Shown here: positions 6,686 to 36,991 of the stretch, in pieces
How the letters are laid out: the number at the start of each line of letters is the position of its first letter
How positions within the stretch are numbered: position 1 is the stretch's first letter
NCBI GenBank assembly: GCA_965247115.1
Contig: CBDFGR010000002.1
Coordinates: forward strand, 1,498,669 to 1,562,668
Direction of reading: 5' to 3'
From: Myxococcota bacterium
Lineage (GTDB): Bacteria; Myxococcota_A; UBA9160; SZUA-336
DNA length: 64,000 nucleotides
Made by a program: the position numbers and the translations under genes
Notes under the pieces: generated by a model
The model's input: the letters and a program-made list of their open reading frames with translations, nothing else
Database searches by the model: none
What the model was told of the DNA's origin: nothing

Positions 6686-8050
6686 ATGGGTCAGGGCTTA
6701 CTTACCGATCTGTACCAGATCACGATGGCCAACGCCTACTGGAACAGTGGCTTGGCCGAGCGCGAGGCGGTCTTCCAGCTCTACTTCCGCCGGAACCCGT
6801 TCGGCGGGGGCTATGCAGTGGCTGCGGGGCTGGCCGCGGCGATTGACTCACTGGAGTCCCTGTCTTTCGACGACGAGGATCTGGCCTACCTCGCGAAGCT
6901 CCAGGGAAACGACGGCCGCCCGCTCCTGGACCGAGGGTTCCTGGCGGGGCTCCGAAGCCTGCGCTTCGACTCCGACCTCGACGCGGTGCCTGAGGGGACC
7001 GTGGTGTTCGAGGGGGAGCCGTTGCTGCGCGTCCGCGGCGCCATCGTCCAGTGCCAGCTGGTCGAGACGGCTCTCCTGAACCTGCTGAACTTCCAGACCC
7101 TGGTGGCAACGAAGGCGGCCCGAGTCTGCCTCGCAGCGGCCGGAGATCCGGTGCTCGAGTTCGGGCTCCGGCGCGCGCAGGGACCGGATGGCGGGGTGTC
7201 GGCCAGTCGCGCCGCCTATCTCGGCGGCTGCGCCGCGACCTCGAACGTGCTGGCTGGCAAGCGCTTCGGCATCCCGGTCCGCGGCACGCACGCTCACAGC
7301 TGGGTCATGGCCTTCGACAGCGAGCAGGGGGCCTTCGAGGCGTGGGCCGAGGCTATGCCGAACAACTGCGTCTTCCTGGTGGACACCTACGACACGCTGG
7401 CGGGGGTGCGTCTGGCCGTGAAGGTGGGAACCCGTCTGCGCGAGCGCGGCCACGAGCTTGCCGGCGTCCGGCTCGATTCGGGGGATCTTGCCGATCTGAG
7501 TGTGGCGGCGCGCCAGCTGCTCGACGCGAGTGGCTTCCCGAAAGCGGAGATCGTGGCCAGCAACGATCTCGACGAGCACGCGATCGAAGCGCTCAAGCGA
7601 CGAGGCGCTGCCGTCAGCGTCTGGGGAGTCGGGACTCGGCTCGCCACCGCGCACGACGATCCGGCCCTTGGCGGGGTGTTCAAGCTGGCGGCAATGCGAG
7701 ATGCGGAGGGCCGCTGGACCTATCCCGTGAAACACTCGGAGGACCCGGAGAAGTCGACGCTGCCTGGCATCCACCAGACGCGCCGCTTTCTGCACGGCCG
7801 CAAGTTCCTGCGAGACCTGATTTTCGACGCGGAGCTCGGCGCGGACCAGACCGACGAGCCACACGAGGATCTCCTCAGACCAGTTCTGCGGTCCGGACGC
7901 CGGGTCGAAGAGCCCCCTACCCTGGACGAGTCGCGCGCGCACGCGCTCGATCAGCTCGCGCGGCTTCCCGCCGGGACGAAGCGGCTCGTGAACCCCGACC
8001 CCTATCCGGTGGAGGTCGACACCCGCCTCGCAGCCCGCACGCGCACGTGA
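6686..8050 (+). CDS. pncB: nicotinate phosphoribosyltransferase
   Basis: 454-aa ORF; [15 protein letters not shown]...[13 protein letters not shown]...VDTYDT motifs characteristic of PncB. Confidence 0.9.
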
Positions 8051-8175
8051 GAGCACTCATCCTCGTCGACCTGCAGAACGACTTCCTGCCCGGAGGCTCG
8101 CTCGCGGTGCCCGATGGAAACGGCGTGATCGACGTCGCCAACGCGGTCCAACCCCGCTTCCCCCTGGTCGTCTGA
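8047..8175 (+). pseudogene. pncA: nicotinamidase/isochorismatase-family (pncA-like) N-terminal remnant, 42 codons then stop
   Basis: GTG at 8047 overlapping pncB stop; [42 protein letters not shown] matches PncA N-terminus (about 190 aa expected); no continuation in other frames before the convergent gene at 8240. Confidence 0.5.
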
Positions 8176-8239
8176 GTCCGCCGAGGGACGTTCCCGACCT
8201 CCGAGGTCTGGCTGCTTGGGCTTGCGACCGCGGCGCAAC

Positions 8240-9034
8240 TTACGGAGAGATCAGCTTCGAGAGCGTGTGGAGCGCCCGCTCCATGCGCGGGCCGTACCAG
8301 CTCAGGAGCTCGCCCTCGATCACATGGATCCTACCGCTACGAGCTGCGGCGCAATCGAGCTGCAAGAGCTCGTTCCGATCGGACTCACCGAAGCAGTACG
8401 GCTCCGTGGGCAGAAGGATCACCTCCGGTGCGGACTCCTCCAGTCGGCGCTCGTCGATGCGCGGATAGCGCTTCTGGCCAGCAAAGCAGTTGACGCCACC
8501 GCAGACCCGCATGAGATCGTGCGCGAAGGTGTCCTCACCGACCGCCATGTATGGGTGCTTCCAGATGAGCGCCGCCACCCGGTCTCCTTCCTCGCGCGGG
8601 GAGGTCTTTGCCCGCGCGAGTTCGACACGCAGGGCGATCTGCTCCGCTACGGGTGAGGTTCCCGTCAATAGGCCAAGTGTGCGGATGTCTTCGATGGCCT
8701 CGGCGAGCGTGCGCGCGTACGTGACGAACACCCGTACACCCGCGGCTTCCAGGCGCTCAACGTCGCGCCGCCGGTTCTCCTCCTTGTTCGCGATGACCAG
8801 ATCGGGCTCCAGGCCCAGGATCGTGTCGAGCGAGGGATTCTTCGTCCCTCCGACGTGGGTCTTAGAGTGCACGCCCTCCGTCGGGTGAACACAGAACTCG
8901 GTAACTCCAACGATCTCGATGTCCAGACCGAGAGCGAAGAGCGTCTCGGTGATCGACGGGACGAGCGACACGACTCGCTGCGGAGGGCGCTCAAAGTCGT
9001 GGCTCCTGCCGAGCGCGTCCAGGATTCGCGGCAT
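8240..9034 (-). CDS. periplasmic substrate-binding protein, TroA/BtuF-like (ABC-type cobalamin or Fe3+-siderophore binding fold)
   Basis: 264-aa ORF; RVVSLVPSITETLFALGL...VGVTEFC...PDLVIA and ...EVILLPTEPY pattern of class III periplasmic binding proteins. No ABC permease or ATPase adjacent. Confidence 0.65.
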   Translation of the reverse strand: MPRILDALGRSHDFERPPQRVVSLVPSITETLFALGLDIEIVGVTEFCVHPTEGVHSKTHVGGTKNPSLDTILGLEPDLVIANKEENRRRDVERLEAAGVRVFVTYARTLAEAIEDIRTLGLLTGTSPVAEQIALRVELARAKTSPREEGDRVAALIWKHPYMAVGEDTFAHDLMRVCGGVNCFAGQKRYPRIDERRLEESAPEVILLPTEPYCFGESDRNELLQLDCAAARSGRIHVIEGELLSWYGPRMERALHTLSKLISP

Positions 9035-23782: not shown

Positions 23783-25198
23783 TCAAAAAAGACCTGGCAG
23801 CGGTCCGGGGTCGCTGAGCTCGTTGGCCGAGCAGACCTTGTTCCTGCCGAGCGCCTTGCCCAGGTACATCGCCTTGTCGGCGAGATCGAGGATCATCTCG
23901 GACGTTTCGCCGTTACCGGGGAAGCTGGCGACACCGATGCTGAGCGTCAGGCTGAGCTGCAGCCCTCGTTCTGCTCCGAACCGAGCGTCCTCCACGCTCC
24001 GGCGTATGCGCTCCGCGACCTCTAGCGCCTTGTCCTGGTCTGTGTCCGCCAGCAGGATCGTGAATTCGTCGCCGCCGTAGCGCCCGACGGTATCGATCGC
24101 CCGAATCTGCTTGTGCAGGAGCTGGCCGAGCTCCATCAGCACGCGCGAGCCCACCAGGTGTCCGAACTGGTCATTCACGTTCTTGAAGCGGTCCAGGTCC
24201 AGGAACAGCACGCTCAGCTGGCTGTGCGCGCGGGTGGCCCGGCTGACCTCTCGATCGAGGGCGGAGAGCAGGTAGCGTGCGTTGTAGAGCCCGGTCACGT
24301 CATCCACGAACGCGCGCTCGCGCGCCTGGACGAAGCGGTCTGCGTTGATAAGGGCCAGCTCGGACTGGGTGGCCACGAGCTCCCCGCGACGGGTCTCATC
24401 GGGCGTAAAGGCCCGGCCCTCCGGGAGCACCCAGATGCCCCCGGCAACGTGACCGTCGAGACACACGGGTAGACTCAGGATCTCCTCCCCCTCGGCCAAG
24501 CAGCCAAGCTGAGTCAGGAGCGCCTGGCTCGACGCGTCACATCCGCCCTCGGACTCGAGCGCGCCGAGATCGAACAGCTTGTCGCGCTGGATGGAATCCC
24601 GCAGCTCGGGGACCCCTTCCACGGGAAAGCCCCTGAGGTGAACACCCTCCGAGGGACGGGCTTGCTCACCGTACGCGAGTCTCCCGATGGCCATGGAACG
24701 GCTCACGACTCGGAGGACGATGTCCAGAGCCAGGGGCAGCACGTCGGATGTCTCGAGGCAGGAGGCGAGGCTTCGTGTGGCCTCGAAAGCCTGGATGCAG
24801 CCACGCAGGGCTTCGTTCTCCGAGAGGAGATGTCGGCGCAGCAAGGTGCGCTTGACGCAGTAGACGATCTCTGGCGCGGTGACGGGCTTGCGCAGGAAGT
24901 CCGCAGCGCCCAGCCGCATGGCCTGGAGAGCGCTTTCCAGCGAGGCGTAGCCCGTCAGGACCACCACTTCGGTCGACGGCCAGTCCCGCCGCACCTGCTC
25001 CATCAGCTCGAAGCCGTCCATCTCGCGCATGGAGAGGTCCGTCAGGAGCAGCTCGACCGCGCCATTGCGACCCAGCCATTCCAGGGCTTCCATCCCGGAG
25101 GTCGCGAGGTGTACTCGGAAGCCCTCCTGCGCAAGGGCGTCCCGCGTCATTTCGCGAATCAGTAGATCATCGTCGACGACCAGAACTCGCCTGCTCAC
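23783..25198 (-). CDS. response regulator with receiver domain and GGDEF diguanylate cyclase domain
   Basis: N-terminal VLVVDDDLLIREM...LTDLSMREMDG receiver; C-terminal DDVTGLYNARYL...RYGGDEFTILL GGDEF signature. Confidence 0.85.
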   Translation of the reverse strand: MSRRVLVVDDDLLIREMTRDALAQEGFRVHLATSGMEALEWLGRNGAVELLLTDLSMREMDGFELMEQVRRDWPSTEVVVLTGYASLESALQAMRLGAADFLRKPVTAPEIVYCVKRTLLRRHLLSENEALRGCIQAFEATRSLASCLETSDVLPLALDIVLRVVSRSMAIGRLAYGEQARPSEGVHLRGFPVEGVPELRDSIQRDKLFDLGALESEGGCDASSQALLTQLGCLAEGEEILSLPVCLDGHVAGGIWVLPEGRAFTPDETRRGELVATQSELALINADRFVQARERAFVDDVTGLYNARYLLSALDREVSRATRAHSQLSVLFLDLDRFKNVNDQFGHLVGSRVLMELGQLLHKQIRAIDTVGRYGGDEFTILLADTDQDKALEVAERIRRSVEDARFGAERGLQLSLTLSIGVASFPGNGETSEMILDLADKAMYLGKALGRNKVCSANELSDPGPLPGLF

Positions 25199-25275: not shown

Positions 25276-26463
25276 CTACTTGCGGAGCCTGAGTCGGAGG
25301 GCGTTCAGGCGGATGAAGCCGGTGGCGTCGCGCTGGTCGTAGCTGTCATCGGCCTCGAAGCTCGCGATGTCCTCTCGGTAGAGCGTGTTCGGGGACTTGC
25401 GACCCAGAATCGAGACGGCGCCCTTGTACAGGCGCACGCGCACGGTGCCGGTGACGAGCTCCTGGCTGTGCGCGACGGCTGCGCGCAAGAACTCCAGCTC
25501 CGGAGAGAACCAGAAGCCATTGTAGATCAGCTGCGCGATGCGCGGGATGAGGCGATCCCGCTCCAGCAGGACCTCGCGATCGACGCTGATCGACTCGAGT
25601 GCCCTGTGGGCCGCGTGAAGAACTGTCCCGCCTGGCGTCTCGTAGACCCCCCTCGCCTTCATGCCCACCGCCCTGCTCTCGACGATGTCCACGCGGCCGA
25701 CCCCGTGTGACGCCCCCAGCAGGTTGAGCCTCTCCAACAGCTCGACCGGCCCCAGACGCTCCCCCTCGACCCGCACCGGGGCTCCCGCCTCGAAGTCAAT
25801 CTCGAGCTCGGCAGGTCGGTCTGGCGCGTCTACAGGGGACGTCGTCCACTCGAACATGGCCTCGTCCGGCGAGCGCCAGGGATCCTCGAGGACGCCACCT
25901 TCGTAGCTGATGTGGAAGAGGTTGCGGTCGATCGAGTACGGCTGCTCGAGCGACGCCTCGACGGGGATGTCGAACTTGTCCGCGTAGCTCAGGAGCTCAG
26001 TCCGTCCGCGCAGGTCCCACTCGCGCCACGGGGCGATGATCTTGAGCTCAGGAGCGAGCGCCTGGAAAGCCAGCTCGAAGCGCAGCTGGTCGTTCCCCTT
26101 CCCGGTGCACCCGTGCGAGAGCGCATCCGCCCCGAACTCCCGAGCCACCCTCACCATCTCCTTGGCCAGAACGGGTCGCGCGAGCGAGGTCCCCAGCAGG
26201 TAGCTGCCCTCGTAGACGGCGCCAGACTGGATCGCGAAGTAGCAGAAGTCGCGTACGAACTCCTCGCGCAGGTCCGACACGACGCACTCCACGGCGCCCG
26301 TGTCGAGGGCCTTCTTGCGGACGGCATCGAGGTCTTCGGCCTGGCCGACGTTCCCGCACCACGCGACCACCTCGGCACCGTAGGTCTCGATCAGCCACGT
26401 GAGGATCACGGAGGTATCGAGCCCGCCGGAGTAGGCCAGCAGGATGCGCTTTACGTCCGACAT
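25276..26463 (-). CDS. argG: argininosuccinate synthase
   Basis: 395 aa; ILLAYSGGLDTSVILTWL...SHGCTGKGNDQLRFE. Confidence 0.95.
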   Translation of the reverse strand: MSDVKRILLAYSGGLDTSVILTWLIETYGAEVVAWCGNVGQAEDLDAVRKKALDTGAVECVVSDLREEFVRDFCYFAIQSGAVYEGSYLLGTSLARPVLAKEMVRVAREFGADALSHGCTGKGNDQLRFELAFQALAPELKIIAPWREWDLRGRTELLSYADKFDIPVEASLEQPYSIDRNLFHISYEGGVLEDPWRSPDEAMFEWTTSPVDAPDRPAELEIDFEAGAPVRVEGERLGPVELLERLNLLGASHGVGRVDIVESRAVGMKARGVYETPGGTVLHAAHRALESISVDREVLLERDRLIPRIAQLIYNGFWFSPELEFLRAAVAHSQELVTGTVRVRLYKGAVSILGRKSPNTLYREDIASFEADDSYDQRDATGFIRLNALRLRLRK

Positions 26464-26517: not shown

Positions 26518-26901
26518 TCAGGCGACGATCTTCTCACGGATCAGGCGCGCCAGCACCTCGAGCGTTCGTTGTCGGCTGCAGGTCGACAGGCTGAGCAGGT
26601 CGCCGATCGACACCTTGCCGTCGATCTGCGAGAGCATGTGGCCTTCCTCTCGGTCGAGCTTCAGCTTCAGCATCTCCTCGGTCGTGCAGTTCAGCTGCAG
26701 CGCGCGTCCCTGGTCTCCGATCTGCTTCGACCACTTCTCGGCGCGCGCGTTGCCGACCAGCTGCAAGTAGCCCTGTACGTCGAGACGCTCCGAGTCGACC
26801 TTGGAGACCTTTTCGAGGTTCTTCCAGGCGTGATCCAGCTCGCCGATCTTGTACGCTGCGAGCGCATCCGCGATCAGCTCCTCGTGGTCCTCTGACTTCA
26901 C
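26518..26901 (-). CDS. hypothetical protein; possibly the C-terminal part of the upstream TPR ORF (same frame, separated by one TAA)
   Basis: Track ORF 127 aa begins at GTG 26901; same reading frame as 26974..27249; no family recognised. Confidence 0.35.
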   Translation of the reverse strand: MKSEDHEELIADALAAYKIGELDHAWKNLEKVSKVDSERLDVQGYLQLVGNARAEKWSKQIGDQGRALQLNCTTEEMLKLKLDREEGHMLSQIDGKVSIGDLLSLSTCSRQRTLEVLARLIREKIVA

Positions 26902-26973
26902 GACAACGACGTCGCCGATCGCTCGCGTCAGCGAGATCTCGTTGGGGTCCGGCGCATCGTCAGTCAGCTCGAA

Positions 26974-27249
26974 TTAGGAGAAGGGCGTGGAATCATCGTC
27001 GAGCGCATCCGCCCCGAGCTCCTCGAGCTCCACGAATTCCTCGACTTCCTCGACTTCCTCGACCTCCGCCACCTCCAGATCTCGTTCCTGGTACGCGTTG
27101 GCAAGGTAATCGTGGATGGCGTTGTTCTCCGGGTCGATCGCCCGCGCTCGCTCCCAGCAATCGATCGCAGCCTCGAGGTTGCTCAGCCCGTAGTGGTTGA
27201 GTCCCCGCTTGAGCAGGCGCGTAACCTCCTTGTTGCGATCCGCGGCCAA
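26974..27249 (-). CDS. small TPR-like protein with acidic tail
   Basis: 91 aa; ...GLSNLEAAIDCWERARAIDPENNAIHDYLANAYQ... TPR-like helix pair, then EVEEVEEVEEF acidic run; stop TAA at 26974-26976. Confidence 0.4.
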   Translation of the reverse strand: MAADRNKEVTRLLKRGLNHYGLSNLEAAIDCWERARAIDPENNAIHDYLANAYQERDLEVAEVEEVEEVEEFVELEELGADALDDDSTPFS

Positions 27250-27253
27250 GCTC

Positions 27254-28816
27254 TCAGCCCTTGACTTGGACCGCGTACTCGGACGAGAGCTTCTCGACCT
27301 CTTCCTCGCTGAGCGCGCCGCGGGGGTTGACCTGGATCGATTGAGCCTGGTTCGTTGCGAGGTCCTTCGCAGAGACGCTCACGATCCCGTTCGCATCGAT
27401 GTCGAAGCACACCGAAACCTCGCACTCCCCCTTGGGAGCCGGGATGATCCCCGAGAGGATGAACTCGCCCAGCAGGTCGTTCTCGTCGGCTCGTTCGCCC
27501 TCGCCCTGGAGCACTCGAACCTTGACCGCCGTCTGATTGTCCCGAGTCGTGGTGAAGATCTCCTTTCGAGACGTGGGCACCTTGGTGTTGCGCTCGATCA
27601 GCCTTGCGAAGTGGCCACCGAAGGTCGCGATTCCGAGCGAGAGCGGCGTCACATCGATCAGCAGCGGGCTCTCGCTTCCCTCGGTCAGCATCGCGGCCTG
27701 GATGGCGGCTCCGATCCCCACGACCTCGTCGGCGTTGACACCCTTGTGCGGTGGCTTTCCAAAGAACTCGGTGACGAGCCTCTGCACGAGCGGAGTGCGG
27801 GTCTGCCCACCGACGAGCAGTACCTGATCGATGTCCGCCACTCCCAGGTTCGCGTCTTCCAGCACCCTCTCGCAGATGGTCTGCGTGCGGGCGACGATGT
27901 CGGTGATCAGCTCCTCGAACTTGGCGCGGTCCAGCAGCATGCTCATGTGCAGGGGCTGCTCATCGGCGTTCGCCGCAATGAACGGCAGGTTGATCTCCGT
28001 CGACTGGACCTGCGACAGATCACACTTGGCTTTTTCCGCCGCGTCTTTCAGGCGCTGCAGGGCCATGATGTCGTCGCTGAGGTCAACGCCTTCCTTGTCC
28101 GCGAAGACGTCGATGAAGTGCTGAACAAGACGCAGATCGAAGTCCTCTCCCCCAAGGCACGTGTCGCCGGAGGTGGCAAGCACCTCGATCAGTCCGGAGC
28201 CCAGCTGCAGAATCGAGATGTCGAACGTGCCCCCACCCAGATCGTACACGGCGATGTGCTCGTTTTGGTCGCGGCCCAGACCGTAGGCGAGGGCCGCCGC
28301 CGTCGGCTCGTTGATGATGCGCAACACTTCCAGCCCCGCGACACGCCCCGAGTCCCGCGTCATCTGGCGCTGGGAATCGTTGAAGTAGGCGGGAACGGTG
28401 ATGACCGCCTCCTGGACGCTGTCCCCGAGATACTCCTCCGCCACGCGCTTCATCTCCCGGAGCACGATCCCCGAGATCTCAGACGTCGTGTAGACGCGCC
28501 CGGCAATCTGAATGCGCGTATCCCCGTTCGGTCCCTCGACCACATCGTAGGGAAGGAGCTCCTTGGCGCGCACCACCTCTTCCGAGTCAAAGCTCCGGCC
28601 GATCAGTCGCTTGGCGGCATACACCGTGTTTCGGGCATTCGTCACCGCCTGCCGCTTTGCCAGATGACCCACCAGCCGCTTGCCCTCCTCGGTCACGGCA
28701 AAGATCGACGGTGTGGTCTTGTAGCCGCCCGTGTTCGGGATGACGACAGGCTGGCCGTCCTCCATGACCGCAACGCAGGAGTTCGTCGTCCCGAGATCTA
28801 TTCCGACTACTCCCAA
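27254..28816 (-). CDS. Hsp70 family chaperone (DnaK-like, short form lacking C-terminal lid)
   Basis: 520 aa, TTG start with AAGGAG RBS; [13 protein letters not shown]...[14 protein letters not shown]...[13 protein letters not shown]; canonical DnaK is about 640 aa. Confidence 0.9.
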
Positions 28817-28837
28817 TCTCTGTGCTCCTTTTTCGGC

Positions 28838-29854
28838 CTAGAGTGTCTGCAGCTCGGCCCGGACTTCTCGATCCATCGGATCCAGCTCCCACGCCCGCTG
28901 CAGGTACTTGCGCGCCGACGCGACCTTGCCGAGCTGCTTGAAGATCTGGCCGAGTACCTTGAGCGAATTGACCGAGTCTCCATCCAGCGAGATCGCCCGC
29001 TCCGCAAACGTTCGGGCCGTCTTGAGGTCTCGTTCCTTGAGCAAGAGCTCTGCTACCGTCGCCGCCAGCTCGGCATCGGTAGGTCGCAGCTGCGACGCCT
29101 CCGAGAGCATCTCGATCGCGTTCTTGCGTTCACCTCGCTTCAGCATGGCGCGCCCGCGCGCCAGCGCTTCGTCCCCACGCGCGGCATTCGCCTGGATCAC
29201 CACCTCGGCGAGCTCGTCGTGGATCGTCGTATCCCGCGGGTCGAAGGCCAGCGCGTGCTTGAGAAGCGAGGCGGCTCGCTCCCAGTTCCCCGCCTCCTTG
29301 TGCTCCAGTGCCTCGTCGACGTGCCGCTTGGCTCTCGAGCGACTCTGCTTCAGCCGCCGCTCCAGGATCTCCAGCTGGCCCTTCGGGGAGCGCAGACCTT
29401 TCCTGTCGCGCAGCGACGGACCGCCGGTCGGCTGTGCAGTAGACGTGGCGTCGCGCGTCGGGTCCTCGTCGGCAGACGACTGGCTCTTCGAGGGAGCTCG
29501 GTCTTTTCTCGGTCCGCCCTCGTTGAGCAGCCGGTCGTAGCTCTGGCGGAGGGAGGGGTCCCGCAGAACGTCGTTCGCTGCAACTACGCGCTTGTAGATC
29601 TCGGTCAGCAGGGGCCCGTACATGCCTGTCTGCTTGTTGAAGTACCGATCGGGATGGAAGCGCTTGGAGCACTCGAAGAAGGCGTCGCGGACCGCGGCGT
29701 CGTCCACGTCAGGCTCCAGGCCTAGCAGCTCGTAGTAGTTGAGGGCGGGCAGAGCGCGAGCGAGGTCGCGGAGCTCAGCCTGGAACTCCGAAGACAGATC
29801 GACGGCCTCGTTGGCCGCCGCTTGTCCCGAAGAGCCTTCCCCGCTTTCGCTCAT
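28838..29854 (-). CDS. J-domain (DnaJ-like) protein with TPR repeats
   Basis: 338 aa; YYELLGLEPDVDDAAVRDAFFECSKRFHPDRY J-domain with HPD; C-terminal TPR-like repeats. Confidence 0.8.
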   Translation of the reverse strand: MSESGEGSSGQAAANEAVDLSSEFQAELRDLARALPALNYYELLGLEPDVDDAAVRDAFFECSKRFHPDRYFNKQTGMYGPLLTEIYKRVVAANDVLRDPSLRQSYDRLLNEGGPRKDRAPSKSQSSADEDPTRDATSTAQPTGGPSLRDRKGLRSPKGQLEILERRLKQSRSRAKRHVDEALEHKEAGNWERAASLLKHALAFDPRDTTIHDELAEVVIQANAARGDEALARGRAMLKRGERKNAIEMLSEASQLRPTDAELAATVAELLLKERDLKTARTFAERAISLDGDSVNSLKVLGQIFKQLGKVASARKYLQRAWELDPMDREVRAELQTL

Positions 29855-29982: not shown

Positions 29983-30948
29983 CTACGCGAGCAGCCGCTC
30001 CAGGATCGCCTTTTGCGCGTGCAGGCGGTTCTCGGCCTGGTCGAACACGAGCGAGCGCTCGGATTCGAAAACCTCGGCCGTGATCTCCTCACCCCGGTGG
30101 GCCGGCAGGCAGTGGAGGATCCGAACGGACCCGGGTGCGGCGCGCAGGAGCGTGTCGTTGAGCTGATATGGCGCGAAGACCGAGCGACGCTCGGCCGCCT
30201 CGTCCTCTCTGCCCATGCTCGCCCAGACGTCCGTGTAGAGAAATGACGCATCCTTGACCGCCGCCTGGGGATCGTGCGAGAGGTGGATCTCCGCCCCAGA
30301 GGTCCTGGCGAGCTCGGCGCCGCGCCGAACGATGGCTGGATCCGGGGCGTAGTCCGGGGGCGTACAGACCGTGAGCTTCATTCCCAGGCGCCCGGCCAGG
30401 TGGATTAGCGAGTGGGCCACATTGTTCCCGTCGCCGATGTAGACCACGAGATCCTGGCGGAGGTCTCCGTTCTCACGGATCGTAAGCGCATCTGCCATGG
30501 CCTGGCACGGATGCAGCAGGTCGGTCAACCCGTTCACGACGGGGACACTGCCCCAGCTCGCGAGTTTCTCTACCATGTCATGACCGAAGGTTCGCGCGAC
30601 GATGCCGTGACACCAGCGCGACAGGTTGCGGGCGACGTCCTCGATAGGCTCGCGTTCTCCGATGTTCACCTGGCCCGTCGGTAGCTGTAGCGCGTGCGCG
30701 CCGAGCTCGGAGATGCCCACCTCGAACGTGACAAAGGTGCGCAGGCTCGGCTTCTCGAAGTAGAGCAGGATCGACAAGCCCTGCAGCGAGCGGACCGTCT
30801 CGCGTCGGGCACGGCTGACCTTGAGCTCGCCAGCCCGCTCCAGCATCTTCTCGAGCTCGTCGCGCGGCCAGTCGGCGATCGAGAGGAAGCTGGTGGGGAC
30901 CTTCTCGGTGTCACCTAACGCGGACAAGCTTTGTTCCCACGCCTCCAT
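29983..30948 (-). CDS. argF: ornithine carbamoyltransferase
   Basis: ...[20 protein letters not shown]... (STRTR-type carbamoyl-phosphate motif) and [10 protein letters not shown]; ATG at 30948. Confidence 0.9.
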
Positions 30949-31771
30949 CCGTGAATATCTCGAGCAATAGCGCGTGCGAGACGCGGCCGTCAATGACGTG
31001 GGCTGACGTTACCGTGCCCTCGAGCCCACTGATGCAGCACTCGAGCTTGGGGATCATTCCCCCTTGTACGCTGCCGTCGGCGATCGCTGCCAGCGCCTCA
31101 GCGCTCGTCATTAAGGTCCGCAAGACCCCGTTTTCGTCGAGCACTCCTTCCACGTCGGTGACGAGGATCAGCTTCTCGGCCCCTACGGCCTCCGCGATCC
31201 CGGCAGCCGCAACGTCTGCGTTCACGTTGTAGGTGCGACCCTCCGTATCGAGTCCGATCGGCGCAATGACGGGAATGAGGCCGCTGCGCGTCATGGTGGT
31301 GATCAAGCTCTCGTCGATGTGCTCGGGAGTCCCCACCCGCCCCAGGTCTTCGCCCGATGGCAGCTTGAGGGGACGCACGCGCATCAGCTCCCCGTCCTTG
31401 CCCGTCAAGCCCACTGCCCGACCACCGGCGCGGCCAATCAGCGAGACGATCTCCGCATTGACATGTCCGCCCAGCACCATCTCGACGACGTCCATGGTCT
31501 CTTCGTCGGTGACCCGCATGCCGTCGACAAAGCGGGTCTCTTTGCCGAGCCGCTTTAGCATGTCACCGATCTGCGGACCACCACCGTGGATGATGACCGG
31601 GCGCAGCCCGATGTAGCGCAGAAGTGTGACGTCAGTCGCAAACGAGGCCTTGAGCTCTGCATCGAGCATCGCCGCGCCGCCGTACTTGATGACGATGGTC
31701 TTGTCGTAGAACGCTCGGATGTACGGCAGCGCCTCTACCAGGACGCCGGCCTTCTCGATCAGCTTCTCCAT
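30911..31771 (-). CDS. argB: acetylglutamate kinase
   Basis: 286 aa; [10 protein letters not shown]...[18 protein letters not shown]...; apparent 38-bp overlap with the argF start. Confidence 0.9.
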
Positions 31772-31783
31772 CAGCTTCCGCGC

Positions 31784-33091
31784 CTAGAGCACGAACCGCG
31801 ACAGGTCGCGGTTCCCTGCGATCTCTTCCAGCCGCTTCCTCACGACCGCCGCATCGAGGGTGACGGTTTCCCCTGCCATGTCCGGGGCGCCGAACAGCTC
31901 GAGCTCGAGCAGGCGTTCGAGCACCGTGTGCAGCCTTCGGGCACCGATGTTCTCTGTCGACCGGTTCACCTCCGAGGCGATCCGCGCGATCTCCTGAATC
32001 GCATCCGGTTTGAACTCGAGCTCCACCGCTTCAGTCGCCAGCAGCGCCTCGTACTGCTTTACGAGCGCGTTCTTCGGCTCCTGCAGGATGCGCACGAAGG
32101 CGGCCTCGTCCAGGTCATGGAGCTCGACCCGGATCGGGAAGCGGCCCTGCAGCTCCGGAATCAGATCCGAAGGACGCGAGACGTGAAACGCCCCCGCCGC
32201 GATAAACAGGATGTGATCCGTGCGCACACTGCCGTGCTTGGTCTGCACGCTGCAGCCCTCGATCACAGGCAGCAGGTCGCGCTGCACCCCTTCGCGCGAA
32301 ACGTCGGTGCCCCAGCTCTCGCGTCGTGCGATCTTGTCGAGCTCGTCGAGAAAGACGATACCCGACTCCTCGACACGCTCGATCGCTCGCTCTCGGACAG
32401 CGTCCTGGTCGATCAGCCTGTGCGCCTCTTCGTCCTGCAGGAGCTCGCGCGCCTGGCGCACCTGTACGCGCCGCACGCGTTTGCCCTTGGACATCATGTT
32501 GCCCATCAGGTCCTTGAGGTTGAAGCCCATCTCTTCGACGCCCTGCGGCGAAAAGATCTCGAGCGTTGGACCCGCGCGCTCCTGGGTCTCGATCTCCACC
32601 TCCCGCTCTTCGAGGTCGCCTGCGCGCAGCTTCTCGCGCAGCCGTTCCCGCGTGGCGTCGGCGCCGCCTTCGCCGGGACGGGGAAACAGGGCGTCGAGCA
32701 GCCGTTCCTCCGCGATCCGCTCCGCGGAGGCACGAACCTTGACGGCCTCTTCGTCGCGGACCAGCGTGATCCCTACCTCGACCAGATCGCGCACGATCGA
32801 CTCGACGTCGCGCCCAACGTAGCCCACCTCCGTGAACTTGGAGGCCTCGACCTTGACAAACGGGGCGCCCGAGAGCTTGGCCAGCCGGCGGGCGATCTCC
32901 GTCTTGCCGACACCCGTCGGCCCGATCATGAGGATGTTCTTGGGATGGATGTCCTCGCGAAGGTCACCCTCCACCTGCTGCCGCCGCCAGCGATTTCGCA
33001 GCGCGATCGCGACCGCGCGTTTGGCATCGCTCTGGCCCACGATGTAGCGGTCCAGCTCGGAGACAACCTCGCGTGGCGTGAACGACTTCAA
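31784..33091 (-). CDS. hslU: ATP-dependent protease ATPase subunit HslU
   Basis: 435 aa; [33 protein letters not shown]...[20 protein letters not shown]... Confidence 0.95.
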
Positions 33092-33630
33092 GCCGTGAGT
33101 TCCTCAATGCTGATCTGCTCGTTGGTGTAAAGGCAGATGCCCGCTGCAACCCGCATGGCACGCTCTGCGATCTCCCTCGCGGACAGGTCCGTGGCTTCCA
33201 TCAGAGCGCGCGCCGCAGCGCGCGCGTAGCCGCCTCCCGACCCGATCGCGGCGATTCCGTCGTCCGGCTGGATCACGTCGCCGTTGCCGGAGAGCAGCAG
33301 CGTCTCGTTCGCATCGGCTACCACGAGCAGGGCCTCCAGGCTGCGCATGCTTCGGTCGGTGCGCCAGTCCTTGGCGAGCTCCACGGCCGCTCGTCGCAGG
33401 ACTCCGAACTCCTCCAGCTTCGCCTCAAAGCGCTCGACCAGCGCCACCGCATCTGCCGTGGAGCCTGCGAAGCCCGCCAGTACGCTGCCTCCACGGAGCC
33501 GTTGGATCTTGGTCGCGCCGTTCTTCACCACGGTGTCGCCCATGCTGACCTGGCCGTCGCCCGCGATCACAACCGTATCGCCGCGGCGCACCGCGATCAC
33601 CGTGGTCCCGCGCATCTCGAGCTGACTCAT
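33088..33630 (-). CDS. hslV: ATP-dependent protease subunit HslV
   Basis: 180 aa; [31 protein letters not shown]... with N-terminal Thr after processing. Confidence 0.95.
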
Positions 33631-34565
33631 CCTCTCTCCCTTACTGGAGAGCCCGCAAATCCATCGGGCTCTCGGGAGCGCGGATGCGCCTGCCGGTAGA
33701 CCCGAGCCAGCCGCTCGGCCGACACCTGGGTATAGCGCTGTGTCGTGCTGAGCCGCTCGTGCCCGAGCAGCTCCTGGATCGCGCGGAGATCGACGTCCGC
33801 ATCGAGCAGATGCGTGGCATAGCTGTGGCGGAGAGTGTGCGGGCTCACTTGCCGCGGGATCCCGACCTCGAGCAGGCGACGCCTCAGGACCTTGCGGACC
33901 CCCCGCGCCGAGAGCCGTCCCCCCCGGGCGTTCAGGATCAGCGGCTCGTTCAGCAGTCCCTGTCGCACGCGCGGCTCGAGATACGCGAGCAGGGATTCGA
34001 GCGCCTGCCCTGGGATCGGGACCACCCTCTGCCGGTTCCCTTTGCCCTGGACCCGGAGCTCGGCGCGATCGCGGTCGAGGTCGCGAACGGAGAGACTCGT
34101 GAGCTCACCGACCCGGAGCCCGGTTCCGTAGAGCAGATCGAACACCGCTCGATCGCGAGCGTCCAGGGCCGGCCGCGGGTGCGGGCTCGCGGCGTCGATA
34201 AGTCGCTCGCACTCCGCGGCTCCCAGCGGAGCGGGCAGCCGCCGCTCGGGCTTGGGTCCGGGCAGCCCCTCGCTCGGGTCAGCGGCCCGTGCGCCGAGGC
34301 GCACCTGAAAGCGGAAGTAGGAGCGCAGGGCGGAGAGCCGCCGCGTTCGGGTCGCCGGCGTGTGCGTGCGATGGAAGCCCGCCAGGTAGGCGCGGAGCGA
34401 GAGCGCGTCCACCTGCGCGAGCCCTCCCGCAAGCGCGCACTCCGGACTCGAGGCCAGCCGCCGCACCTCGCTCGTATACGCCCGGACGGTGTGTGGCGAG
34501 AAGCCTCGCTCCGCCTCCAGGTAGCGGCGGAACTCCGCATTGGAGCTGCGTTCCGCGGGCGTCAC
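33627..34565 (-). CDS. xerC: tyrosine recombinase XerC/XerD family
   Basis: GTG at 34565 overlapping the trmFO stop (GTGA); C-terminal ...[39 protein letters not shown]... with catalytic RY. Confidence 0.85.
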
Positions 34566-35884
34566 GGGAGCGAAGCCGGAACGGTGGAGGCCCAGGGAGC
34601 GAGGTCTGCCAGAGCTCGGGCGCTCACCCGCAGGTTGCGTTCGCGCTTCGGTGTGCGCCGAGTGCGGTCCGCGAGCGGCGGGAACAGTCCGTAGTTCACG
34701 TTCATGGGCTGGAAGCTGTCCGGACGCGCATCCCGTAGGTGACGCAGGAGAGCGCCCAGCGCTGTCGTCGGCGGAGGCGCCGTCGCCAGCGCACCCTTCG
34801 CACGGCCTGCGACGAAGATCCCGGCCAGCAGCCCGAGCGCCGCCGACTCCACGTAGCCCTCCACTCCCGCGATCTGCCCGGCAAAGTAGAGGCCGTCGCT
34901 CTTCCTGTGCTGGAGCTGCTCGTCGAGCAGGAGCGGCGCGCGGATGAACGTGTTGCGGTGGGTCGAGCCGTAGCGCGCGAAGACTGCCCCGGCCATGCCC
35001 GGGAGGCTCCGGAAGATGCGCCGCTGCTCGCCGATCCGCAGCTTGGTCTGGAAGCCGACGAGGTTGTACAGCGTCCCCGTCTTGTCTTCCTGGCGCAGCT
35101 GCACGACGGCGAAGGCTGGCTCCCCGCCGCGAGGATCGCGCAATCCGACGGGCTTCATGGGTCCGAAGGCCAGGGTATCGGCGCCGCGCTCCGCCATCAC
35201 CTCGATCGGGAGACATGCTTCGAAATAGATCGCCTGCTCAAAGCGGTGCAGCGGCACCTTCTCCGCCTTCACGAGCTCGTCCACGAACGCGTAGTACTGC
35301 TCGCGATCGAGCGGGATGTTCAGGTAGTCGCCGGCTCCCGCCTCGTAGCGAGAGGCGCGAAAGACTACGTCGTAGTCCAGGCTGTCGGCGTAAACGGTGG
35401 GCGAGATCGAGTCGTAGAAGTAGAGCGAGTCGCCGCAGATCTGCGCGATCGCGGCCGCGAGCCCATCCGAGGTGAGTGGGCCGGTGGCGAGAATCGCGAG
35501 TCCCTCCGGAAGCTCTGTCACCTCCTCGCGCACGACCTCGATACGTGGCTCCTGGGCGATGCTTTCCGTCACCTGGCTCGAGAACTGCGTGCGGTCCACG
35601 GCCAGCGCCTTGCCCGCGGGAACGCGGCACGCGTCTGCCGCACGAAGGATCAGGGAGTCGAGGCACCTCATCTCCGCATGCAGGAGCCCCACCGCGTTGG
35701 CCGGCTGGTCCGAGCGGAAGCTGTTGGAGCAAACGAGCTCCGCCAGCCCCTCGCTCGTGTGCGCTGCGGAGAAGCGCGCCGGTCGCATCTCGTAGAGACG
35801 CACCGCCACACCCCTTCGGGCCAGCTGCCAGGCGGCCTCGCAGCCTGCCAGACCTCCGCCGATGACGCTCACAGGCTCGCTCAT
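34562..35884 (-). CDS. trmFO: methylenetetrahydrofolate--tRNA-(uracil-5-)-methyltransferase TrmFO
   Basis: 440 aa; VIGGGLAGCEAAWQLARRG...YFAGQIAGVEGYVESAALGLLAG. Confidence 0.9.
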   Translation of the reverse strand: MSEPVSVIGGGLAGCEAAWQLARRGVAVRLYEMRPARFSAAHTSEGLAELVCSNSFRSDQPANAVGLLHAEMRCLDSLILRAADACRVPAGKALAVDRTQFSSQVTESIAQEPRIEVVREEVTELPEGLAILATGPLTSDGLAAAIAQICGDSLYFYDSISPTVYADSLDYDVVFRASRYEAGAGDYLNIPLDREQYYAFVDELVKAEKVPLHRFEQAIYFEACLPIEVMAERGADTLAFGPMKPVGLRDPRGGEPAFAVVQLRQEDKTGTLYNLVGFQTKLRIGEQRRIFRSLPGMAGAVFARYGSTHRNTFIRAPLLLDEQLQHRKSDGLYFAGQIAGVEGYVESAALGLLAGIFVAGRAKGALATAPPPTTALGALLRHLRDARPDSFQPMNVNYGLFPPLADRTRRTPKRERNLRVSARALADLAPWASTVPASLP

Positions 35885-35902
35885 GGAACGCCCGAGGATA
35901 GC

Positions 35903-36991
35903 TCAGCGAAGAAGGACCACCCGGGCTCCCTCGCGCGCGATCCGGCCGCCCAGCTCGAGCTCGAGCAGTGTCGCGGCGAGGCTGGCAGCGGGAACGCCCA
36001 GCTTTCGCACGATGTCGTCTGCGGAGAGCGGACCGTCGCGGAGCAGCGCCAGAACCTGCTCGGACACGCCCCTCTCCGGGGTGCCTACTCCGACGTCTCC
36101 CTGGGGACCCTTCTTCCGCGGCGGCCACACATCGACCAGGAGGCGCAGGTCCGTCAGGTCCAGGATCGGCGCGGCCGCGCGCAGCAGCGCGTTCGATCCC
36201 CGACAGAGATCGCTATCCGTCGGACCCGGGATGACGCCGAGATTTCGACCCTGGTCGAGCGCGTGCCGGGCCGTCCACAGGGTCCCGCTCTTCTCGCGCG
36301 CCTCCACGACGAGCGTCGCCCTGGCCAGACCGCTGATGAGCCGATTGCGTTCGGGGAAGTGGTACGGCCGATACTCCTGCCCTGGCGGGTACTCCGAGAG
36401 CCAGGCTCCCCCCGAGTCGAGGATCCGAGTGGCGAGCCGGCGATTTCCCGCTGGGCTTGGTCGCTCGAGGCCGGAGGCGAGAATGGCCACGGTGCGGCCG
36501 GCTCCACGGAGCGCTCCCTCATGCGCCGCTGCGTCGATCCCGTAAGCCAGGCCGCTGACGATGACCGCGCCGTCCACCGCCAGCTGCTCCGCGTACTGCT
36601 GTGCCGCAAGCCGGGCTCGTGAGGACGGGCGCCGCGACCCGACGATGGCGAGTCCCGGCTCAGCGGGGAGCGAGCCGCGAGCGTAGAGGACAAGAGGAGG
36701 GTCGGGCATCTGCAGGAGCGCCAGAGGGAAGCCGGGCATGCCGTAGAGCAGCACCGCCAGCTCCCGCTTCTGAACGGCCGCCAGCTCCTCGGAAGCCGCG
36801 GCCAGGTCCGGACCGCACTGCAGTGCCGCCGCCAGCACCTCGCCACACTCTTCCTTCAGCTCCGAGTAGCCTCGAGCAAAGATCTCGCCAGGCGAGCCCA
36901 GACGCTCGAGCAGGTGCACCGCAATGTCCCGACGCATCCCGGGCACGTTCCGCAACGCGATCCAGAGCAGGGGATCGTCCAAGCTTTGCAT
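35903..36991 (-). CDS. dprA: DNA processing protein DprA (Smf)
   Basis: 362 aa; ...AIVGSRRPSS...VSGLAYGIDAAAHEGAL... Rossmann-like DprA core. Confidence 0.85.
   Translation of the reverse strand: MQSLDDPLLWIALRNVPGMRRDIAVHLLERLGSPGEIFARGYSELKEECGEVLAAALQCGPDLAAASEELAAVQKRELAVLLYGMPGFPLALLQMPDPPLVLYARGSLPAEPGLAIVGSRRPSSRARLAAQQYAEQLAVDGAVIVSGLAYGIDAAAHEGALRGAGRTVAILASGLERPSPAGNRRLATRILDSGGAWLSEYPPGQEYRPYHFPERNRLISGLARATLVVEAREKSGTLWTARHALDQGRNLGVIPGPTDSDLCRGSNALLRAAAPILDLTDLRLLVDVWPPRKKGPQGDVGVGTPERGVSEQVLALLRDGPLSADDIVRKLGVPAASLAATLLELELGGRIAREGARVVLLR

Follow-up and report, generated by a model that had tools for sequence, protein, structure and literature searches.

A conserved three-gene module around a lid-less DnaK-type Hsp70 in uncultured Myxococcota

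An Hsp70 that ends shortly after its substrate-binding domain and is encoded beside a J-domain protein raises the question of whether it is a broken chaperone, an accessory of the general DnaK system or a machine with clients of its own. Such a gene lies in a stretch of 64,000 nucleotides (nt) from a Myxococcota bacterium (assembly GCA_965247115.1, contig CBDFGR010000002.1, positions 1,498,669-1,562,668; hereafter the window, on whose numbering all positions below are based). It is preceded by the gene of a J-domain protein with tetratricopeptide repeats (TPR) and followed by a third gene that combines TPR with a winged-helix-like end. Comparison with related loci identified these genes as a conserved three-gene Hsp70 module of uncultured Myxococcota, which we take, with a probability of roughly 0.6, to be a specialised machine for one or a few specific clients. 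The related loci (L001 and following numbers; P numbers denote proteins) comprise contigs carrying Hsp70 homologs and 18 genome loci obtained by a scan with the J-protein alignment A1, and all were mapped with the proteins of the window. The features of the module are listed below; the open reading frames (ORFs) named in a preliminary description of this DNA lie exactly where that description had placed them.

28838-29854, minus strand: class C J-domain/TPR protein of 338 amino acids (aa) (Pfam DnaJ and TPR families).
29534-29740, minus strand: J domain of this protein, residues 39-107 (Pfam DnaJ, E = 7.7e-11), with the HPD motif at residues 67-69 (nt 29648-29656).
28841-29332, minus strand: TPR domain of this protein, residues about 175-338, with 4-5 repeats (Pfam TPR).
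28825-28830, minus strand: Shine-Dalgarno sequence AAGGAG, 8 nt before the TTG start of the Hsp70 (read from the sequence).
27254-28816, minus strand: lid-less DnaK-type Hsp70 of 520 aa (Pfam HSP70, NCBIfam PRK00290).
27257-27307, minus strand: C-terminal stub of the Hsp70, helix 504-513 plus tail 514-520, ending here in EYAVQVKG (AlphaFold2 model and tail counts).
26518-27249, minus strand: third gene of the module, 243 codons, interrupted here and intact in relatives.
26974-27249, minus strand: TPR ORF of 91 aa, the 5′ part of the third gene (ORF list).
26974-26976, minus strand: in-frame TAA at codon 92 of the third gene; the 99%-identical locus L028 has GAA (Glu).
26518-26901, minus strand: ORF of 127 aa, the 3′ part of the third gene (ORF list).
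26521-26901, minus strand: C-terminal module of the third gene, a TPR-like three-helix unit and a small winged-helix-like domain with the motif LxxxEG[FYH]xLSQIDG.

The 21 nt between the stop codon of the J-protein gene and the TTG start of the Hsp70 hold the AAGGAG sequence, and only 4 nt separate the Hsp70 stop codon from the start of the third gene.

The Hsp70 matched the Pfam HSP70 profile with E = 1.6e-207 over positions 1-513 of 599. It scored above the cut-off of the NCBIfam DnaK model PRK00290 (754.3 bits against 648, profile positions 4-510 of 625), below that of the DnaK model TIGR02350 (730.3 bits against 822.55) and below those of both HscA models (527 and 525 bits against 620 and 708.55, respectively); no HscC model was present among its NCBIfam matches. 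Its neighbours are arginine and hslVU genes instead of isc and hscB. Judged by its profile scores (754 against 527 bits), the protein is a DnaK derivative and not an HscA. The best matches among solved structures were mortalin and DnaK (E about 1e-175), and the identity to Escherichia coli DnaK was 54.5% over nucleotide-binding domain, linker and beta-sandwich. Residues 3-512 aligned to residues 4-517 of the solved E. coli DnaK chains, with about 8 further residues up to the end of the protein, so that the terminus corresponds approximately to DnaK residue 525, within lid helix A. An AlphaFold2 model built with 40 family members (mean predicted local distance difference test score, pLDDT, 87.9; predicted template modelling score, pTM, 0.87) contains the nucleotide-binding domain, the beta-sandwich and a single 10-residue helix (504-513), and lacks the lid. 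The order of parts is therefore nucleotide-binding domain, LLID linker, substrate-binding beta-sandwich, helix A stub and a conserved tail, which across the family follows the pattern [DE]-[VI]-x-[VL]-[KR]-x and occurs in two forms, EVAVKG or ELYEVQLK[EDG]. Alignment and model thus bear out the initial observation of a protein of about 520 aa that ends just past the beta-sandwich and has no helical lid. As for docking of the tail in the protein's own pocket, the model supports it neither way, residues 515-520 having a pLDDT below 50.

The possibility that the lid had been lost through a frameshift and is encoded downstream was named in the preliminary description as the finding that would overturn it. 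Among the best 120 Hsp70 homologs listed (66-95% identical), 119 were 499-529 aa long. When the search was started from the distant member P0107, a ‘Myxococcaceae bacterium’ protein, 118 of the best 120 listed measured 520-531 aa, at 77-100% identity to the seed. Pooling both searches gave 190 homologs of 505-535 aa with a mode of 523. After the Hsp70 stop codon no frame shows similarity to a lid. Between the window and the 95%-identical locus L001, the ratio of non-synonymous to synonymous substitution rates (dN/dS) was 0.076 in the Hsp70, lower than the 0.13 of ArgG; the J protein gave 0.26, and the third gene 0.09 and 0.18 in its two halves. The Hsp70 is under strong purifying selection across the lineage. 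The sole exception among the best 120 is P0057, a protein of 646 aa that carries a full lid in the same syntenic slot (L025, 8001-9941). Its nucleotide-binding domain is of the lid-less type but is joined to a canonical-looking substrate-binding domain with lid, and only 94 bp of contig remain beyond the gene; we therefore take it for a probable assembly chimera, with a genuine recombinant as the less likely alternative. Given the conservation of length and tail, and with the third gene beginning 4 nt past the stop codon, the truncation is not the product of a frameshift.

Residue conservation was assessed in 191 family sequences aligned to E. coli DnaK; this reference sequence, entered by hand, had the expected length and the marker residues K70, E171, T199, D201, M404, A429 and V436. 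Four groups of residues were conserved in 99-100% of the sequences: the ATPase and allosteric residues D8, K70, E171, D194, T199, D201, P143 and R151; the J-contact residues R167, N170 and T173, which are identical to those of DnaK; L390-L391 and D393 of the linker; and I401, F426, Q433 and V436 of the peptide pocket. As the catalytic, linker and pocket residues are intact, a normal ATP-driven cycle would be expected. The likeness to canonical DnaK thus extends over catalytic, allosteric, J-contact and pocket residues and the hydrophobic linker, whereas of helices A-E and the C-terminal tail only the helix A stub is present. A second difference lies in the arch, which is changed to T429 in 99% of the sequences (A429T) and to F404 in 55% (M404F), and a third in an invariant loop of the family's own, PN[TA]GGYK, at positions 28-34. 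Further family changes are D481N (97%) and L484V (100%).

In the nucleotide cleft, K55, R56 and E267 never vary, and position 264 has D in place of E throughout. Cleft residues of this kind reportedly form a DnaK-type pattern, which Brehmer et al. in 2001 are said to have tied to slow exchange and GrpE dependence. The combination K55, R56, D264 and E267 argues against a fast, GrpE-independent exchange like that of HscA and HscC and suggests that the Hsp70 has a slow intrinsic exchange and depends on a GrpE encoded elsewhere. A tblastn search of the whole 64-kb window, with a GrpE query entered by hand, found neither GrpE nor a second Hsp70 nor another J protein, class A DnaJ included. The early remark that no grpE is adjacent therefore stands, and the grpE/dnaJ neighbourhood of a canonical dnaK is absent from the window.

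The J protein had been described as carrying TPR in place of the zinc-finger and client-binding domains of DnaJ and as lying directly upstream of the Hsp70, and both statements agree with our data. Pfam detected the J domain and, in the C-terminal part, TPR_14 (182-217), TPR_11 (234-262), TPR_19 (271-333) and TPR_2 (298-326), with no match to the DnaJ zinc finger or to DnaJ_C. A disordered, low-complexity linker of about 65 aa separates the J domain from the repeats. With an HPD-bearing J domain and otherwise TPR families only, this is a class C J protein. Its homologs (n = 134 at E<=1e-5) are mostly 312-351 aa long, and H67, P68 and D69 are invariant in alignment A1. In a sister clade (L005, L026 and L027) the J protein reaches 409-439 aa and carries an N-terminal winged-helix domain of the same type as that of the third gene (hhalign probability 84%, E = 7e-6). 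Because this domain type is common to both proteins, its distribution ties the J protein and the third protein to one assembly. A simple ‘Rosetta stone’ reading, in which the winged helix fused to the J protein substitutes for the third gene, was rejected: it fits L005 only, and L026 and L027 have both, their separate third gene encoding 193-194 aa.

Downstream of the Hsp70 a small TPR ORF had been noticed. There is indeed a TPR ORF at this position, but it is merely the 5′ part of the 243-codon gene cut by the TAA. Locus L028 contains an intact third-gene ORF of 246 aa (7606-8346) that differs from the window at this codon by one G-to-T change, and the gene is uninterrupted, with 218-259 aa, in 14 of 16 loci. 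The window TAA is thus either a mutation or a sequencing error. L001 and L002, which come from two samples, have another in-frame stop, a TAG, in the same linker (L001, 9742-9744), so that the in-frame stops could reflect repeated gene fission, read-through or, in the window, sequencing error. By the ratios given above, both halves of the gene are under purifying selection. Across the family the protein measures about 190-260 aa and consists of an N-terminal TPR, an acidic disordered linker, a second TPR and a winged-helix-like end of about 55 aa, whose motif may also be written LxPDEGFLLSQIDG. Within the clade of the window the linker conserves a DD-x-T-P-x-S motif and a short hydrophobic patch; in alignment A2, T113 is nearly invariant and P114 invariant, and some members repeat the motif 2-3 times.

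The C-terminal module of the third gene was found in 215 representative relatives and lacks a Pfam model. The match is located at the C-terminus, or a few residues from it at most, in nearly all of the listed rows, the host proteins having 39-1106 aa. For the winged-helix end, no non-TPR Pfam match below E = 0.03 was obtained in 11 aligned sequences, and a profile search of the third protein against the PDB gave mostly TPR matches and none to this end. Foldseek returned weak matches of the winged-helix end to the Npr2/Nprl winged helix (E 0.05-0.5). Some of the scanned members of the wider family (for example P0336 and P0369, among P0314-P0463) also carry an N-terminal TPR.

We then considered how regularly the three genes occur together. 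The J gene adjoins the Hsp70 in about 24 loci, over a range of Hsp70 identity of 67-99%, and the third gene follows the Hsp70 in most of the sufficiently long loci, including those of the sister clade. All mapped loci belong to metagenome-assembled genomes (MAGs) or metagenome contigs labelled Myxococcota or ‘Deltaproteobacteria’, that is, to uncultured organisms; cultured myxobacteria appeared neither among the best 120 listed of either Hsp70 search nor among the 18 genome loci.

In the mechanism that we propose, the J-TPR and TPR/winged-helix proteins would serve as adaptors for targeting and recruit one or a few specific partners to the Hsp70, whose ATP hydrolysis the J domain would then trigger. 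Engineered lid-less DnaK reportedly binds and releases substrates fast and tolerates folded clients. By analogy, the Hsp70 described here may bind and release fast and accept bulky folded clients, and so would act on a defined client, by remodelling or regulating it, instead of holding unfolded chains, with nucleotide exchange probably provided by a GrpE encoded elsewhere. Of this picture, the anatomy of the genes, the constancy of length and residues, synteny, purifying selection and the folds are observed, whereas ATPase activity, stimulation by the J protein, the adaptor roles, dependence on GrpE and the kind of client are deduced from them.

Several observations weigh against this proposal. 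L003 and L004 have no J gene (200 bp separate argF from the Hsp70) and yet keep the Hsp70 and the third gene, and L005 and L006 lack the third gene; with these losses, neither partner can be strictly indispensable in cis. The family has no client or phenotype on record. Since the J-contact residues of the Hsp70 are the generic ones of DnaK, cross-talk with other J proteins and with canonical DnaK appears likely. In Myxococcus xanthus, moreover, two J proteins whose genes lie close to those of non-canonical Hsp70s, MXAN_2745 and MXAN_3015, were recovered with the canonical MxDnaK1 only, a result confirmed by split luciferase (PMC11019930), and deletion of MXAN_2747, which is described as having a strongly shortened lid region and as lacking the C-terminal tail, caused only mild defects in sporulation and oxidative stress, the protein being unable to rescue an E. 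coli dnaK mutant (PMC8265645). Of the dedicated chaperone pair first proposed, therefore, the adjacency of J protein and Hsp70 holds in some two dozen loci, but the unit comprises three genes, the J gene can be missing, and exclusive pairing is put in question by the generic J contacts and by the J-DnaK1 binding in M. xanthus.

The recovery of the M. xanthus J proteins with MxDnaK1 also speaks for the main competing explanation, to which we give an appreciable but clearly smaller chance: the Hsp70 would modulate canonical DnaK in the manner of Hsp110 or Ssz1, by forming a heterodimer, by acting as exchange factor or by titrating J proteins, and the J-TPR protein would serve mainly the housekeeping DnaK. 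Of the M. xanthus J domains, those of MXAN_3015 and MXAN_2745 come closest to that of the window (37-43% identity, with a common HPDR[YF]F motif, in a comparison of J-domain sequences only). The J-docking residues of the Hsp70 are identical to those of DnaK, and Hsp110-like roles have been proposed for bacterial DnaK derivatives in a 2026 review (PMC13580251). However, orthology with the M. xanthus genes is not established. MXAN_2745-2747 sit between CvpA and class II amidotransferase genes, not arginine genes; the A1 genome scan gave 18 MAG loci only, and the best 120 listed in the P0107 search were all metagenome or MAG proteins. In contrast to Ssz1, whose ATPase cycle is degenerate, and to Hsp110, the present family keeps catalytic residues, allosteric linker and hydrophobic pocket at nearly 100%, which argues for a normal ATP-driven substrate cycle.

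The other non-canonical Hsp70s of M. xanthus, which belongs to the same phylum, are the Hsp70 of the MXAN_3015/3016 J-Hsp70 pair and StkA. An orthology with StkA was rejected, as StkA, with 540 aa, has another context, its gene preceding those of the SCP2-like StkB and of StkC (PMC4319316). With the eukaryotic ribosome-associated complex (Ssz1/HSPA14 with Zuotin/DNAJC2), DNAJC7 and DNAJC3 there is no sequence relationship beyond shared domains; in DNAJC3 and DNAJC7 the TPR precede the J domain. The closest architectural parallels are E. coli HscC-DjlB/DjlC and HscA-HscB, where a reduced-lid Hsp70 paralog is encoded next to a J protein that is not of the DnaJ type, with no adjacent GrpE; an absent lid and a J gene 21 nt upstream conform to the HscC type of architecture. 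The lids of HscA and HscC are shortened, not absent (PMC13580251), whereas that of the window Hsp70 is gone completely. The J protein differs as well, with TPR instead of the helical domain of HscB or a membrane anchor, and so does the presence of the third TPR/winged-helix gene.

A more specific idea, which we regard as speculative and somewhat less probable than a modulator of DnaK, is that the third protein is not just an adaptor but the dedicated client itself. In the HscA-HscB-IscU system the operon encodes Hsp70, J protein and client, and HscA captures the LPPVK motif of IscU. By analogy, the DD-x-T-P-x-S motif of the linker might be captured by the lid-less pocket, and ATP-driven binding could switch the winged-helix end, which would turn the module into a chaperone-operated regulatory switch.

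Another explanation starts from the surroundings of the module, whose flanking genes are the following.

33627-35216, minus strand: xerC (ORF list and Pfam).
33088-33630, minus strand: hslV (ORF list and Pfam).
31784-33091, minus strand: hslU (ORF list and Pfam).
30911-31771, minus strand: argB, upstream flank (Pfam AA_kinase).
29983-30993, minus strand: argF, upstream flank, as a mechanical ORF (Pfam OTCace).
25276-26463, minus strand: argG, downstream flank (Pfam Arginosuc_synth).

The module could serve these neighbours, being co-transcribed with argB, argF, argG and hslVU and either helping the assembly or turnover of arginine enzymes or feeding HslUV. All genes lie on a single strand and are separated by short gaps in which no convincing terminator occurs (of terminator-like sites there are 5, against 3.6 expected by chance, and each of them lies within a gene), and the order argB-argF-J-Hsp70 is kept in nearly all loci, that of xerC-hslV-hslU-argB-argF-J-Hsp70 in essentially every locus that is long enough. 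Nevertheless, argG is found downstream in only about half of the loci: it is absent in L005, L010, L012-L014, L021 and L027 and inverted in L020; in L018, argF is absent between argB and the J gene. Because of this inconstancy of argG and argF, the arginine setting appears to have been inherited as synteny and not to reflect a functional link. The block dprA-trmFO-xerC-hslV-hslU (33088-36991, minus strand) is kept in all related loci and corresponds to the smf-topA-gid-codV-clpQ-clpY (codVWX) arrangement of Bacillus; it is an old syntenic block, in which arginine genes and chaperone module are embedded, so that the setting may be inherited. We know of no Hsp70 specific to arginine enzymes. Thus the embedding in an arginine region, noted from the start, is correct as to position (argB and argF upstream, argG downstream), but a functional link does not follow from it, and we consider service to the neighbours improbable.

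Least of all do we credit an artefact or pseudogene, a frameshift or assembly error having cut off a lid encoded downstream: P0057 alone, the probable chimera, speaks for it, and the shared end point and tail of 190 homologs, the low dN/dS and the immediately following TPR gene speak almost conclusively against it.

The specialised machine that we favour would extend a class that has already been recognised. Lid-deleted DnaK derivatives in Myxococcales are listed, as uncharacterised, in the 2026 review (PMC13580251), and in the literature searched we found no description of the three-gene module. The module belongs to this recognised, unexplored class of bacterial DnaK derivatives and goes beyond HscC-DjlC and HscA-HscB in its complete loss of the lid, its TPR-bearing J protein and its third gene. 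A naturally lid-less but otherwise intact DnaK of constant length offers a defined handle on DnaK derivatives, all the more as it comes with two candidate partners that have TPR and winged-helix parts in common. It is also a natural counterpart of the engineered lid-less DnaK used to study lid function; the ‘lidless’ DnaK(1-517) that Buczynski et al. reportedly made in 2001 was cut almost where the window Hsp70 ends. Its study could reveal which tasks an Hsp70 can perform in the absence of a lid and what determines J-protein specificity among the several Hsp70s of one cell. What lowers this value is that every carrier found is uncultured and without a recorded phenotype.

Near the module no Rfam RNA element or tRNA was found, and none of the four proteins had a PADLOC match to anti-phage defence at E<=1e-3. 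In the sister clade a response-regulator/GAF gene is inserted between hslU and argB (L026, 1939-3606; L027, 2100-3644; L005, 3256-4746), and a gene of 313-320 aa follows the TPR-winged-helix gene in L026 (9162-10124) and L027 (9159-10100), with PAS matches in L027; these inserts hint at a signalling connection there. Downstream of argG, the window carries a response-regulator/GGDEF diguanylate cyclase gene (23783-25198, minus strand) and then aspS, and both are also tied to the locus in L001, L002, L005/L006 and L028. The mechanical xerC ORF, of 529 aa, overlaps trmFO (34562-35884, minus strand) by about 650 nt; XerC is called with 301-325 aa in relatives, so that the true start in the window is probably near 34565. 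Similarly, the argF ORF, with a TTG start at 30993, shares 83 nt with argB and is probably too long as called, the protein in L001 having 314 aa.

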